A stretch of 42,707 bases of DNA from Candidatus Krumholzibacteriia bacterium (lineage in GTDB: Bacteria > Krumholzibacteriota > Krumholzibacteriia > WVZY01), in NCBI GenBank assembly GCA_036478295.1, contig JAZGDW010000239.1, forward strand, positions 1-42,707, read 5' to 3'. A program made the position numbers. Of the stretch, positions 24,001 through 33,000 are shown piece by piece. The first letter of the stretch is position 1; each line of letters starts with the position of its first letter.

Positions 24001-27000
24001 CCGCACCCCTTGTTTGCAAGCATCCGCGCCACGCGGTGGCCGACCAACACGTTTATTGACGCGACGGGTCGATGCTCGGTGGTGTGCCCGCAGGCCGACC
24101 TGGATGTCCGTCCGGCATCGTGTCCGAATCCGTTCAATGCCCAGCTCTTCAATATCCCTGACGGCTCCATGACACGCAAGGGTGGCATTCTTCCGGTAGC
24201 CGTTCTCGGTTTTGCGTCGTTCGACGTCGCGGATATCGATATGGGCAGCATGCGTCTCGAAGGCGTGGCTCCGCTCGCCGACAAGACGATATTTGAAGAT
24301 GTGGCGACCTCGGTCGATCCCGAGGGCGGCTGCTTCCCGGGCGGTCCTGACGGCTTCGTTGATGTGCAGATGAAGTTCAGTTCCCAGGCGATCGCAGCTG
24401 CGATTGGATCGGCTGCGGTGGGGGAGGACGTCACAGTTACGTTGACCGGCACGTTTCTGGATGGGGTGCCGTTCGCGACGACGGACGTCCTGAACGTCGT
24501 GTCGAAAGGCACGCCGCCTCCGGTCCCGATCAATCTGACGACGAGCCTGCTACCGGCGACGCCGAATCCGTTCAACCCGGTGACGCGTCTCGGGTTCTCG
24601 ATTGCGTCCGCGCAGCGGGTTCACCTGGCCGTGTACGACGTTACTGGCCGCTTGGTCGACGTCATCGTGGATGGCGTGCGGCAAGCCGGCGAGCACACGG
24701 TGACGTGGGATGCCGCTGGCCTGGCCAGTGGTGTCTACTTCTACCGGTTGAAAACGCGCGAGCAGACGCTGACGCGGCGTATGGTGTTGCTGAAATAGGC
24801 ACTCACCCGCCGCACTGAAGATCGATATGCTGTGTCCCCGGACGACGAATCAGAACAAGTCCGGGGCCACCAGGCAAGAAAATCCCTCCAATGCCGAAGG
24901 CGGTATTGGAGGGATTTCTTTAGTGGACGGACCAATTTATGCTTTCATGTACTTACGGTGTAGTACTACGAGAGCGAGAGACGATGGGTTTCGGCGAATG
25001 GATATCCAGAGTGTTGGGCGCTTCTTCGGCAGCAACATTGGGTGACGGTATGAAGCGGCTGACGAGTATCGGTGACTTCGATGAGGCACTTGCGAGGAGC
25101 GAGCGCGAGGCGGTTTTCATCTACAAGCACAGCACGGCGTGCGGGTTGTCGGCAGTGGCCCACGATCGGGTGACTGCGTACGTCGGGTTAAAGGTGGAAG
25201 GCTCGGCGCCGGTCTATATTGTCAATCTCCTGGAAACACGCAGTGTGTCGAACGAGATAGCCGATCGCCTGGGAGTGGAGCACCAGTCCCCCCAGCTCAT
25301 TCTTGTCAAAGATCGGCGCGCGGTGTGGCACGCGTCCCATGGCGCGATAAACGAGGAAGCCATCGTGCAAGCGCTGGCCACCGTGGTTGGTGCCGTAGCT
25401 TCCAGTACGTGACCGAGCTGCCTGGCGGCCACACCGGTACTGACACGCAGTGTCACCCCCCAGCCCTCTCTGGAGCGTGGTTCCTCCCTGTACACATCAG
25501 TGAAAGTCACGGCTCTTGCCATGCCCGGGCCGGGTGGGCACTTTTGGGGCCCAGAGGGTCTCGGCAATGAGATGGGTCACGCCCGAGGCCACCTGCAATC
25601 GCCCCGTCACTCCAATAAACGAGGCGGTTTTGACCAGCACGGTGTGCTGTTTGAAAACATTCTGCCAGACAACGACGTTTACGAATCCCGCCTCGTCTTC
25701 CAAAGTCATAAAAACCACACCGCCCGCCGTCGACGGACGCTGGCGGCAGATGACCAGGCCGGCGTAGCGAACGCGCCGTCCATCGGGCATGTCTTTTACC
25801 TCCCTTGCATCGGGCAGGCCCTGGGCCGCAAGCCAATCGCGCAGCGGGGTGAGCGGGTGCGCGCGGGGACTGTGGCCGGTTGCACGGTAATCCCAGTCGA
25901 TGGTTTCAAAAAAACTCAACGGTGCAAAACGCGTTTTCGACCGGGTGGCGTTTAGCGGCAGCCGCGGAGCGGCGGTACGGTCCAGACCACGTACTTGCCA
26001 GATCGTATTGCGCCGGTTTTTCTCGAAGCACTCGAAAGCGCCCGCTTCGGACAACCGCCGGAGGGGCGCGTCTTCGAGATCGGTTCTTTCCGCAAAGTCT
26101 TCGAGCGACTTGAACTCTCCCAGCTGGCGGGTGGTCTCTATGCGTTCCCAGGCGCTTTCGCGAAAACTGCGCACGTATCCCAGCCCCATGCGTACGGCGA
26201 ACCCTTCGCCGCTCTCGCGGCACGGCTCGAGCGTGCACTCCCAGCGGCTCTTTTGTACGTGTACCGGCCGTACATGGATGCCGTGACGCTTGGCGTCGTC
26301 GATTATCGTAGATGGCGAGTAGAATCCCATCGGCTGCGCATTCAAGAGTGCGCAGGTGAACGCCGCAGGGTGATGGCATTTGAGGTATGCGGTGACATAG
26401 GTAATGAGGGCAAAGCTCGCCGCATGGCTTTCCGGAAAACCGTACTCGCCGAATCCCTGTATCTGTTTGAACACCCGCTCGGCGAATGCTCTGGAAATCC
26501 CCTTCGCTATCATGCGCGAGATCAATCGGTCGCGGTGACGGAGGAGCCGGCCCGACCGCCGCCACGCGGCCATGTCACGCCGCAGCTGGTCGGACTCGCT
26601 CGGTGTGTAATCCGCCGCTACCATGGCAATCCGCATCACCTGTTCCTGAAAGAGCGGTACGCCGAGTGTTTTTTCCAAAACAGGTTTCAAGGACGGGTGC
26701 GGGTAGATAATTTGCTCTTCGCCGTTTCGGCGGCGGAGGTAGGGATGCACCATGCCACCGGTAATGGGACCGGGGCGCACGATGCTCACTTCGATAACCA
26801 GGTCGTAGTAGGTGCGGGGCTTGAGGCGGGGCAGCATTGCCATCTGTGCGCGGCTTTCGATTTGAAAGACGCCCACCGTGTCCGCCCGCCGGATCATTTC
26901 AAAGGTCGCTTCATCATCGGCCGGCACCGTGGCCATCGAATAGCGCTTGCCTGAAACCATCTCGATCGAGCGAAACGCAATGTCGATGACCGTGAGCATG

Positions 27001-30000: not shown

Positions 30001-33000
30001 ACCGCATGCCCGGGAGGATGCGATAACGCGTGGCACGGGAATTCACCCACAGGATGACACCCTGCGGTGTGTCCTTGTCCACAACCGCCGCCGGGAGCGT
30101 TTTCCAATCGGGGTGCCGGCGGATGAGGAGTTGCAGGGGAAAGGCGGGCAGGTTAACACAGGCCATCCGGTCCACGGTACACCTCCGTATGATGCCAACC
30201 CAGTCCGTGGCGTTTGTCCCGCAGGATCTCGAGCTCCCAGGTGAACCGGTCGAACCCCGTCTTGTGTATCACCCCCTGCGCACGGAGGGAAACCAGCGGC
30301 CCCAGCGACGGGACCGCCGGTTCTTTGTGGGTGAGGCAGAGAAGTGCGGTGTGATGTTTTCGGGCCAGTGCGGCCAGGCGGGCCTGCACCGCGATGCGCA
30401 TGTCGATTTCGCTCCCGAGATCGAGCACGATAATGCCGAACCCCCCGGAGCGCAGGAGCTGTTCGCCCGCGCGTGCCGCCGACAAGAGGTGGGGTACGCG
30501 AACGACCGGCAGCGATTCGAGGTCGATGCCGCATGCCGCGAAATCGGGAGGGAAAAAGGTGGAGTCTTGCAAAGCAACCCAGGCGGCGGGCTCCCCGCGG
30601 TGCTGCGAGTCGAGGATGAGGGAAGCCGCCGCCGTCATGGAAACAGCCGGGGTAGAAATCTCGAGAAAGCGGCCCCGGAGCGTATCCAGACACCAGGCTG
30701 CGGGCGCTCGCCCGGGCACCCGAGGAGCGGCCGCTCCTCGGGAAGCCCCGGTTGCCGCATGAGCTTCTTTGTCGGTGCGCGGCAGCTGACGTACAACCTG
30801 GACGGCCGTGCCGGAGCGCTCGAGTATGATCGGGCGGGAGGAAGCCATTACAAAATTCTCTTATCGCGTCAAACTCTGTTAAACCTGTGGAATCTCGATG
30901 TAACGTCTTATCTCGATCACTTTGCCCAGAATGATCAATTCATCCGGGTCGGGAATGATCGGCTTGAATTCGGGATTTTCCGGGTGGAGCTCGATCCGGT
31001 TCTTCTTGATGCGGAGCCGTTTGACCGTCGCTTCATCACCCAACAGGGCCACGACCACATCACCCGAGTCCGCCGTCGGCTGGTGGCGGACAATGGCGAT
31101 ATCGCCGGGCATGATCCCCGCACCGGTCATGCTTTCCCCCTGGACGGTGAGGGCGAAAAGATCGCCCGCACCCCGGGATTGCACGGGTACATAGCCCTCG
31201 ATGTCTTCCACCGCCGTTGTCGGGTCACCCGCCTCCACTCTCCCCAGGAGGGGAATCGGAAGGACCACAGGGATCTTTTCGAGGCCGGGCAGGGAGTACC
31301 CCCGGGCTTTGCCCTTCCTTTTGGCCAGACGCCCCTCCTTGACCAGCTGCTCCAGGTGCTCTCGTGCTGTTTCCACAGCCTTGAAGCAAAAGGCGTCCCG
31401 TACCTCACGCACGGTCGGTGGCAGTCCTTCGAGCAGGCGCTTGCGCACGAACCGGTAGATTCGCTCGCGGGTCTGGCCTTTTGGGGTCCGGGGTGACATA
31501 TTGGTATCATACCAGACATTTGTCTGGTATGTCAAGGGAAAATTACGGGAATTTTTAGGGACCGCCTGCGAACCCCGAGGGGGCTTCTATACAGCCGCGA
31601 CCACCGCAAGGCCATCAATTTTGCGAAGTCACCGTCCGATTCGGTACTGCGCAGGAACACTAGTACGGAGGACTTCCGCTCCTAGGGGGTAGGTGTCTCG
31701 GCTCTTTTCGGGGTCGAGTGGTTCGTCAAACGAAGCTTGAGCATTCATGCCGAGTACACCTCGTGGGTACAGGTCACCTGGTCGAGCAGTGAACTGGTTC
31801 GCCAGTCGTCGGGCGGCAGCCTAAGGCGAGACGAGCGAGACTCGACCGGATGGGATGTCCGGTCGGGGTCGGTCAAGTTCGGACTGAGGCCTACTTTTAG
31901 GCGTTTCTTATAAACCAGGTTCTTTCTCACGGTAGCGCACTGTCTCCACCCGATATGCAGCGGGTGCCGGCATCCAGTGGTCCGGCCTTCTCGCAACGTC
32001 CATGAGCCCTGTCAAAAAGGTTGCGGAACGGCAGGGATGGTTTGATATTTGCAACCCTCTCGCCGGCAACGCTCTATCGAGACTTCAGAATACAATCGAA
32101 GTGTTACTCGTAACCTGTTGCAAACATGAGCCGCACCGTCTCGATAGGGATACAATCATACGACTCGGGAGGCAAGCCATGCGCAAAGCCCATGTCATTG
32201 GACTGGCATTTTTAGTTCTCGCTGTACAATTTGTAGCCGCTCCGGCGCTCGCGGGTAACCACGCCCATGCGCGGGACGGGTTCTATCTCGGGCTCGGCCT
32301 CGGTTGGGGAAACGCCGGTGCGGAGGTCCAGGGTCTCAACCCGGACCGCGCGAACAGCGGGTCGGGTAACTTCAGGCTCGGATGGGCCGTCAACGAGCGG
32401 GTCACCGTCGGCCTGGAGAATACCACGTGGATCAAGGATTACGATATCTCCGGAACCGGTGCGAACCTCGAACTGACCGGCACGGTTACCACGTTTGCGG
32501 TCACGGTATTTCCGCACAACATCGGTTTCTACCTGCGAGGCGGTATCGGCGTGGCGACGGGTTCCGCCAAGATAACGAGCGGCAACTTCACGTTCGACGA
32601 CACCGAAACCGGCTTCGGTGCGCTGGCGTCGTTCGGCTACGAGTGGCGGCTCACGCCAAAGTTCGCATTGGGACCCCAGTTTCAGTACGCCTACCTGAAC
32701 ATCGACGGCGACGGCACGGAGAGCGTTGACTTCGTCTCGCTGACCGCACAGGCGACCTGGTACTGGTAAACCCCATGACACCCAGGCAAGCGATGACCGG
32801 CCCGCCGTACGAGTGGGCCGGTCATTTTTTTATCACGTCTCTTCGGAACACGCCGCCCGCAGGTATGGGTCACAGGTGTCGCTTGGGTATCCGCTGGAGG
32901 TCCGTTTCGTCGTTCCACACCAGTGCGGTGATGCGCCACACGCCGCTGGCCTTGATGAACTGGATGCTGTTGACGCCCCGGGCCAGGATATGGGACGGGT

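Follow-up and report, generated by a model that had tools for sequence, protein, structure and literature searches.

In the 42,707-nucleotide stretch of Candidatus Krumholzibacteriia DNA analysed here (the window), the lexA-imuA-imuB-dnaE2 operon is very probably a self-contained SOS mutagenesis module, repressed by its own LexA through a palindrome in its promoter. The palindrome reads CATACCAGAC-ATTT-GTCTGGTATG in the window, an inverted repeat without mismatch, and the lexA start lies 7 nt beyond it, at the head of an intact operon (Table 1). Almost certainly it serves LexA as the operator of the cassette, as the initial annotation had proposed; its promoter position and its recurrence in relatives both point to LexA binding. 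The 16-mer within it, placed earlier at 31509-31526, lies at 31512-31527, and the palindrome, described as standing between the -35 and -10 elements, does fill the spacer but also overlaps both hexamers.

Table 1. Cassette genes and promoter elements in the window
Feature	Position	Strand	Basis or remark
lexA, 206 aa	30879..31499	-	TIGR00498 150 bits (cut-off 111)
imuA, RecA-like accessory protein	30153..30848	-	NF033429 E 6e-4 (weak, under cut-off); operon position
imuB, Y-family polymerase homolog	28607..30175	-	Pol IV families under cut-off; Pfam IMS in homologs
dnaE2 (imuC), error-prone C-family polymerase	25497..28610	-	PRK05672 1342 bits (cut-off 939)
Predicted operator palindrome	31508..31531	.	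10-bp arms, 4-bp spacer; core AGAC-N4-GTCT at 31514-31525
-35 hexamer TTGACA	31530..31535	-	Overlaps the palindrome by its last two bases
-10 hexamer TATGAT	31506..31511	-	Overlaps the palindrome by its first four bases

Profile matches and gene junctions bear out the identities given earlier to the four genes, which lie together in one operon. The first gene product combines the domains and residues of a LexA repressor: a winged helix-turn-helix with the recognition helix at residues 42-54 and an S24 peptidase domain (PF01726 and PF00717, both above cut-off), the cleavage site Ala90-Gly91, and the catalytic dyad Ser123 and Lys160. These four residues, aligned to E. coli LexA, are unchanged in 37 homologs, and the predicted fold agrees with LexA structures (Foldseek against Thermotoga maritima LexA, E 9e-16). 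The imuA homologs match Pfam RecA, and imuA follows lexA at 72 of 80 genome loci and, where metagenome loci are long, at 53 of 54. The imuA start is uncertain, as the alignment of most relatives begins at residue 52. The imuB start overlaps the imuA end, and its product carries a clamp-type motif, QLQLF, at 344. For dnaE2, whose product contains the PDIDLD motif, the frame is open from 28727 and the start is probably at 28610, where start and imuB stop share the letters ATGA.

The minus-strand promoter, with 18 bp between its hexamers, scores 11 of 12, and because only 6 nt separate the -10 hexamer from the lexA ATG, the mRNA is probably leaderless and would be translated as such. Across the 3.52-Mb genome, CCAGAC-N4-GTCTGG occurs once; the bare 12-mer AGAC-N4-GTCT has 37 copies and is hence not rare. 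The signal is the longer consensus (A/C)CAGACA(A/T)(A/T)TGTCTG in the promoter slot, rather than the 12-mer itself. In a genome-wide scan with a matrix built from other phyla only, the operator scored 39.1 bits and the runner-up 17.2 bits.

The dyad is conserved in the lexA promoters of relatives. Upstream of the 30 best loci of the phylum, the exact AGAC-N4-GTCT stands in 25 and a form with at most one mismatch in 28, compared with 0 and 3 of 30 in inside-gene controls; the counts of 25, 28 and 0 given in the initial annotation were thus independently reproduced. In 11 phyla, the box precedes members of this LexA lineage exactly at 49 of 80 loci and with one mismatch allowed at 73 of 80 (0 exact and 4 one-mismatch sites in inside-gene controls), counts that apply to the Ala branch only, since the pattern used to collect these loci demanded Ala. 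An unbiased palindrome count over 67 loci of other phyla placed AGAC-N4, found in 38, at the top together with overlapping forms, the best unrelated word reaching 9. With two variable positions masked, 138 of 155 dereplicated clade promoters carry a site (threshold 13; control maximum 2.3) and 17 of 155 do not; in G021 no site lies within 330 nt. In most relatives TTG(A/C/T) stands before the site, and many share its spacing of 25-26 nt ahead of the start.

The observed sequence features, their conservation and position, the clade, and the movement of box and genes together suggest how the module may work. A LexA dimer would bind the palindrome across the promoter spacer and both hexamers, thereby blocking RNA polymerase. 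Upon DNA damage, activated RecA would trigger self-cleavage of LexA between Ala90 and Gly91 by Ser123 and Lys160, so that ImuA, ImuB and DnaE2 could be made and carry out translesion synthesis. The LexA lineage moves between phyla together with its cassette and, having a box to itself, would act without regard to the host LexA. Its box is of the AC-N4-GT type; the two outermost bases differ among members of the lineage, and Ala41 (Ser39 in E. coli) accompanies AGAC.

The cassette LexA is a second LexA that has spread horizontally among hosts that retain their own LexA with a different box. Its clade, already described as distinct, has 100/100 support in a 42-row tree, with phyla intermixed within it. 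A native LexA is retained in nine of ten genomes from other phyla, and in native lexA promoters this slot is occupied by a different motif, which in Krumholzibacteriota is a direct repeat (21 of 30). The other lexA in the window's genome is degenerate, having lost its catalytic residues. No clade member was found among the plasmids searched, where the best match (43.6%) was a Manganitrophus plasmid cassette with another helix, or among the viral contigs, and neither was accepted as a mobile carrier. A protein atlas returned generic LexA clusters only, and no RNA holder was listed among the sequencing runs searched.

The helix KAVETAREHL, previously assigned to the whole clade, does not hold throughout; its general form is F-[RK]-[AS]-V-[QE]-[TS]-A-R-[EQ]-H-L. 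Of 193 proteins, 99 have the Ala and 90 the Ser. The proposal that loss of Ser39 defines the clade was rejected, Ser being as common as Ala. Ala41 goes with AGAC half-sites, and because Ser41 members mostly carry ATAC, ACAC or GTAC, AGAC-N4-GTCT belongs to a series of boxes within one clade, and that series includes the known GTAC-N4-GTRC core. G at half-site position -5 is found in 161 of 186 cases with Ala41 and 15 of 90 with Ser41; among 16 new loci, an AGAC half occurs in 9 of 9 Ala members and two AGAC halves in 0 of 7 Ser members. The exceptions are four Ser proteins with AGAC on both sides and two Ala proteins without it. Mutual information with the box is 0.49 for residue 41 and 0.44 for residue 3, which lies far from the helix. 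A tree-aware test of residue and base was not significant and was underpowered, with one independent pair on well-supported branches; over all branches it gave 11 pairs, on average 8.7 as expected and 2.1 opposite. The link largely reflects lineage, and residue 41 would be its candidate cause.

A joint reading of the series, somewhat less likely than not as a whole, goes further. One mobile LexA lineage would span at least 11 phyla, so far of uncultured bacteria; its boxes CACAC, CGTAC, CATAC and CAGAC would be set by the first recognition-helix residues, a change from Ser to Ala at the residue equivalent to E. coli 39 turning T into G; and this change would keep the cassette orthogonal to the host LexA of whichever type, the native LexA having decayed in the window's lineage so that its SOS response is mutagenesis alone. 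If so, the old question of how LexA comes to alter its motif becomes testable by single substitutions. It is rather unlikely that a permissive repressor instead reads C-N-N-AC-N4-GT-N-N-G, accepting GTAC, ATAC and AGAC about equally, with AGAC a product of drift in a box of the GTAC type rather than a new specificity. Mixed sites, as such a repressor would allow, are frequent (AG/AT in 18 of 91 Ala-Val promoters, and ten half-site pairs among Ser-Val promoters), and the tree-aware result is compatible with it, but among Ala-Val members of many phyla 153 of 182 half-sites are still AGAC (3 of 182 are GTAC), whereas Ser-Pro members, which carry CGTAC-N4-GTACG, have AGAC in 0 and GTAC in 15 of 30. 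The separate promoters of split cassettes also retain AGAC. As reported earlier, boxes precede lexA-imuA, imuB and dnaE2 in G201, and imuB in G202; the lexA of G202 has one too. Besides the lexA promoters, 25 boxed promoters of imuA, imuB or dnaE2 were found in 15 genomes, and four more as well, with the box in the same slot behind TTG.

That the palindrome serves another regulator, or is kept as mere promoter sequence, is highly improbable. It does overlap the hexamers with its outer bases, and three draft genomes (G175, G181 and G185; 83-95% complete, 350-510 contigs) have the box before imuA with no clade lexA found; however, the conserved core lies in the spacer, it tracks the LexA lineage in 11 phyla and varies with the helix, and native LexA promoters have their different motif at that slot. 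It is also quite improbable that weaker sites give the cassette LexA a wider regulon and that it is assuming control of the host SOS response. In G201 and G202, each a single contig, no lexA but the cassette type was found, and in G210 no other passed the cut-off; native copies without catalytic residues occur in G000, G200, G204 and G206; and candidate sites lie ahead of HNH-endonuclease genes in G187 (seven of them) and of one unrelated gene each in G202, G176 and G020. Chance sites, however, score up to 17-19 bits, and HNH genes were rejected as general targets, with the exact box at 1 of 28 across the order and at neither of the window genome's two copies with upstream DNA. Upstream of recA, where a host SOS master regulator would have its box, it was found at 0 of 29 promoters in the order (no score over -13 within 400 nt); nor was the native direct repeat found there (its best scores, 0-13.3, compare with values of up to 12.9 in controls inside genes), and a take-over of recA was rejected. 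Beyond the operator, the window's genome shows no site above shuffled background: seven matrix matches of 10-17 bits, at least three of them inside reading frames, all fall within the shuffled range and were discarded as targets. In five of five single-contig genomes of other phyla, the one boxed place is the cassette. The small regulon first described therefore stands as regards recA, but it is not always confined to the cassette.

LexA is a textbook regulator with many changes of binding motif, for which intermediate forms seldom come to light. The new motif is connected, through intermediates in one clade, with the known GTAC-N4-GTAC core and also with a candidate residue, offering a case of SOS switch evolution that is open to testing. 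The box may also mark self-regulated mutator modules among uncultured phyla and provide an orthogonal damage-inducible switch. The claim of a new operator holds in that no report of the motif as an SOS box was found, but the motif is a variant in a series with a known core. The type of system and its mechanism, repression of imuA-imuB-dnaE2 and RecA-triggered release, are already known; the lineage and motif are apparently new, being absent from the literature searched, with two key papers beyond its reach.

Among known systems, E. coli LexA shares the fold and catalytic set, and its helix aligns without gaps, but its box is CTGT-N8-ACAG and its regulon differs in size; its DNA-contacting residues S39, N41, A42, E44 and E45 (PMC3091678) correspond to A41, E43, T44, R46 and E47 in the window, four of the five differing. 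The cyanobacterial box AGTACWNWTGTACT (RGTACNNNDGTWCB) and the Bacillus subtilis box CGAAC-N4-GTTCG are likewise 14-bp palindromes with an AC-N4-GT core (PMC3091678). Both have G at -6, where the window's box has A, and rule host regulons that include recA; B. subtilis CGAAC and CAGAC differ by two swapped bases. Deinococcus deserti lexA-imuY-imuB-C-dnaE2 is similarly a self-regulated, RecA-dependent mutagenesis operon, kept separate from the main damage response (PMC8072749), but it has no imuA and a different Y-family protein.

The closest parallel concerns LexA2. A LexA2-type box scan of 201 Gammaproteobacteria led to no lexA, and two LexA2-type proteins (G760 and G237; lexA-imuA, box TGTAC-N4-GTACA, helix ASRNAAQKH) were found via imuA. 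Typed by operon and box, they represent LexA2 in the 42-row tree in place of the Pseudomonas putida protein itself, and there they fall together with LexA of Xanthomonas and of the E. coli type (100/97), outside the cassette clade. The cassette LexA thus differs from LexA2 in both box and branch, and descent from LexA2 is unsupported. In P. putida, lexA2-imuA-imuB-dnaE2 (imuC) is likewise a four-gene operon with a second LexA dedicated to the cassette, for which the same logic is established (PMC3901139). Its box, GTAC-N4-GTRC (PMC5544203), shares the AC-N4-GT core and has an outer GT where the box of the window has AG.

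The palindrome upstream of the cassette lexA is, as far as sequence can tell, very probably a genuine operator, serving a LexA that is both dedicated and cleavable. The lexA, imuA, imuB and dnaE2 genes all lie on the minus strand with short or overlapping junctions, and the inverted repeat takes up the 18 bp between the promoter hexamers TTGACA and TATGAT, running into each of them. Since the ATG lies only 7 nt past the -10 box, the arrangement suggests a leaderless lexA mRNA. The encoded protein scores above the TIGR00498 cut-off, retains Ala90-Gly91, Ser123 and Lys160, and has a LexA-like fold according to a model and structure comparison; its closest named homolog carries the label Candidatus Krumholzibacteria.

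Coordinates of the features (no prefix, window positions; after an L handle, positions within that extracted locus; G000, the window's genome; other G handles, other genomes)
Feature	Position	Strand	Observation
lexA	30879-31499	minus	first gene of the run lexA, imuA, imuB, dnaE2
perfect inverted repeat, 10-bp arms	31508-31531		upstream of lexA; core AGAC-N4-GTCT
YtxJ-like bacillithiol redox protein	24939-25412	plus	convergent with dnaE2
secreted protein	23524-24798	plus	T9SS-type C-terminal domain
second lexA	L001 1096-1716 = G000:C208:17355-17972	minus	catalytic Ser and Lys lost; promoter without operator
Ca. Manganitrophus plasmid lexA-imuA-imuB-dnaE2	L303 111-3638		different LexA (helix AVRAVSKHI)
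clade cassette contig	L073 10001-10204		bin title: Nitrosopumilus
Nitrospirales lexA of the clade, operator present	L038 10001-10213		no imu genes within 10 kb; one site in the genome (1.9-Mb draft)
small zinc-ribbon protein	L229 1107-1313 (G202)		candidate non-cassette target
310-aa protein	L222 1714-2643 (G176)		candidate non-cassette target; no Pfam match
protein of >488 aa	L193 1-1464 (G020)		candidate non-cassette target; only non-significant resemblance to the N-terminus of the HNH family

Matches to the cassette LexA at about 50% identity or more occur in 60 of 208 genomes of the phylum. In agreement with the initial annotation, the exact 12-mer lies within 300 nt upstream in 25 of the 30 best phylum loci and, with at most one mismatch, in 28; control windows inside the gene at the same loci gave 0/30 exact and 3/30 one-mismatch matches. 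When the DNA-binding domain was used to scan named genomes, with a pattern that demanded Ala at the first helix residue, 243 relatives were confirmed and 80 of them listed, from 11 phyla by record title. Among these 80, about 13 of which belong to the window's phylum and overlap the set of 30, the box is exact in 49 and within one mismatch in 73 (controls, 0 and 4). Among the 67 loci from other phyla, spaced palindromes were counted without prior choice of a word; AGAC-N4-GTCT and overlapping forms came first (38-39 loci), the best unrelated word reaching 9 loci, and the consensus reads A(T/A)A(C/A)CAGACA(A/T)(A/T)TGT(C/A)TG(G/C/T)TAT. The named matches among the best 120 listed from each of two protein searches are all metagenome-assembled.

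A single recognition helix and box had been proposed for the whole clade. This largely holds where residue 41, the first of the helix, is Ala, but among 193 clade proteins 99 have Ala and 90 have Ser, the latter mostly with other half-sites. Ser proteins were then used to seed a metagenome scan, which yielded 72 loci whose upstream DNA was long enough: exact AGAC-N4-GTCT precedes 18/20 Ala loci versus 4/51 Ser loci, yet in 41 of the 51 the same promoter slot holds a strong site, with the reading CATAC or CGTAC. Pooling reduced 190 loci to 155 (10 lost to the helix pattern, 6 to short upstream DNA, the remainder duplicates), and 138 of these promoters have a site once two variable positions are masked. 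Base -5 is G in 161/186 Ala41 half-sites; in Ser41 half-sites it is T in 67/90 and G in 15/90, and those of proteins with Ser-Pro at residues 41-42 (n=30) read GTAC (15) or ATAC (14). By mutual information, residue 41 ranks first of 206 columns, by a narrow margin. An extra 18 loci from two other phyla, 2 of them not assignable and four low-scoring sites kept by eye, gave at least one AGAC half in 9/9 Ala loci; the seven Ser loci had ACAC or ACTC (4), AGAC/GAAC (2) and AGAC/ATAC (1). The tree calls for caution about this link: its best version has 10-11 changes at residue 41; across all branches, 8.7 of 11 pairs run in the expected direction and 2.1 in the opposite one, with one pair only on well-supported branches. 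A causal role in box choice is plausible because residue 41 aligns with Ser39 of E. coli LexA, given as a DNA-contacting residue in the portion consulted of PMC3091678. AGAC-N4-GTCT is one step of a box series within the clade. In the deepest-branching members (L495, L496, L499, L500), whose helix reads S-x-A/G-S/T-A, the boxes are of the CACAC or CACTC type, and imuA was not seen within 1.5 kb.

The strongest argument for a functional site is that the box tracks the genes of split cassettes: it precedes imuA, imuB or dnaE2 at 25 promoters in 15 genomes picked for having several matches, and at 4 more, nearly always immediately behind a TTG hexamer. With a matrix built from 64 sites of other phyla and eight column-shuffled matrices as background, the window's site scores 39.1 bits and the runner-up in the genome 17.2, inside the shuffled range of 13.3-21.9; strong sites are therefore lacking at recA, recN and uvrA in this assembly, which is 91% complete, as the initial annotation had stated for the three genes, and none was found at 29 full-length recA loci of the order. 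A regulon confined to the cassette likewise fits all five single-contig genomes of other phyla, each with one site-bearing place, the cassette promoter, but not the candidate sites elsewhere in G187, G202, G176 and G020. In G187, seven genes of a multi-copy HNH-endonuclease family (L219, L225, L230, L252, L254, L255, L256) carry a site scoring at most about 20 bits, usually right before the -35 box; two further copies have none, and across the order the exact box precedes 1/28 such genes, so they are not general targets. HNH genes at L271-L300 and on contigs C30 and C240 of the window's genome share a 5' leader that contains CTCCTCCC and, after it, the ribosome-binding site GGAGG, possibly a hairpin concealing that site.

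The cassette LexA forms a separate clade in which phyla are intermixed, and its occurrence is patchy (at E 1e-50, 14/151 and 7/151 genomes of two other phyla, one of the 7 outside the clade); horizontal spread is the most economical interpretation. The plasmids and viral contigs searched yielded no carrier. The Manganitrophus plasmid LexA is placed weakly beside the clade (86/47), and the Nitrosopumilus-bin contig is probably misbinned bacterial DNA. In some clade proteins (L220, L241 and L313, from G202, G201 and G198; also in G173, G177, G195 and G205), cleavage region and catalytic core are separated by a low-complexity insertion, at most about 55 aa long. Native LexA is kept by 9/10 genomes from other phyla, and cassette lexA is the sole lexA found in single-contig G201 and G202. 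Native Krumholzibacteriota lexA promoters (L146-L172) have a direct repeat, TTTCG-N6-(T/G)TTCG, between -35 and -10 (TTCG-N7-TTCG in 21/30), which resembles alphaproteobacterial GTTC-N7-GTTC and was not found at recA promoters; a similar repeat precedes some host lexA genes of Acidobacteriota and Gemmatimonadota. Catalytic Ser, Lys and promoter repeat are gone from the native copy in G000, G200, G204 and G206, possibly leaving a non-cleavable or repurposed regulator.

Literature searches by exact spellings and topic, with figure logos, most supplements, CollecTF and RegPrecise outside their reach, found no description of the motif, in line with the initial annotation, and we think it likely that this LexA box is not in print. 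Erill 2006 reportedly treats cassette dispersal, and Erill 2016 a Verrucomicrobia motif. The published boxes, in the portions available of each source, are CTGT-N8-ACAG, GAAC-N4-GTTC, GTTC-N7-GTTC and TTAC-N3-GTAA (PMC3323433); GGTT-N10-AACC, GGA-N5-TCC, as well as CTAA-N5-TTAG (PMC8565304); AGTACWNWTGTACT (PMC3091678); GTAC-N4-GTRC (PMC5544203); TTTG-N5-CAAA and TTGTA-N10-TACAA (PMC3789691); a TTACAT direct repeat (PMC7739468); and GTG-N11-CAC (PMC13148647). The AGAC box is also absent from the accessible parts of PMC3108266, PMC13416735, PMC5285347 and PMC6511836 and from one supplement search. A divergent gammaproteobacterial lexA ahead of imuA (L570, G732; helix SVRAAAELI) has another candidate box, TATAC-ATTT-GTGTA, just before its start.

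Excerpts of earlier work describe cassettes with their own LexA in P. putida and others (PMC3901139, PMC8072749), the cassette as sole LexA target in several organisms (PMC3323433), and a standing model in which motif divergence follows lexA duplication (PMC8565304). The LexA2 cassette works alike, but the clade LexA is not LexA2: two LexA2-type proteins group with LexA of Xanthomonas and of the E. coli type (100/97), outside the clade (100/100). On this unrooted tree, the GTAC core common to both is either ancestral or convergent. Systems of this kind, in which a cassette carries a LexA of its own, are already known, and the operator of this clade is a variant among them.
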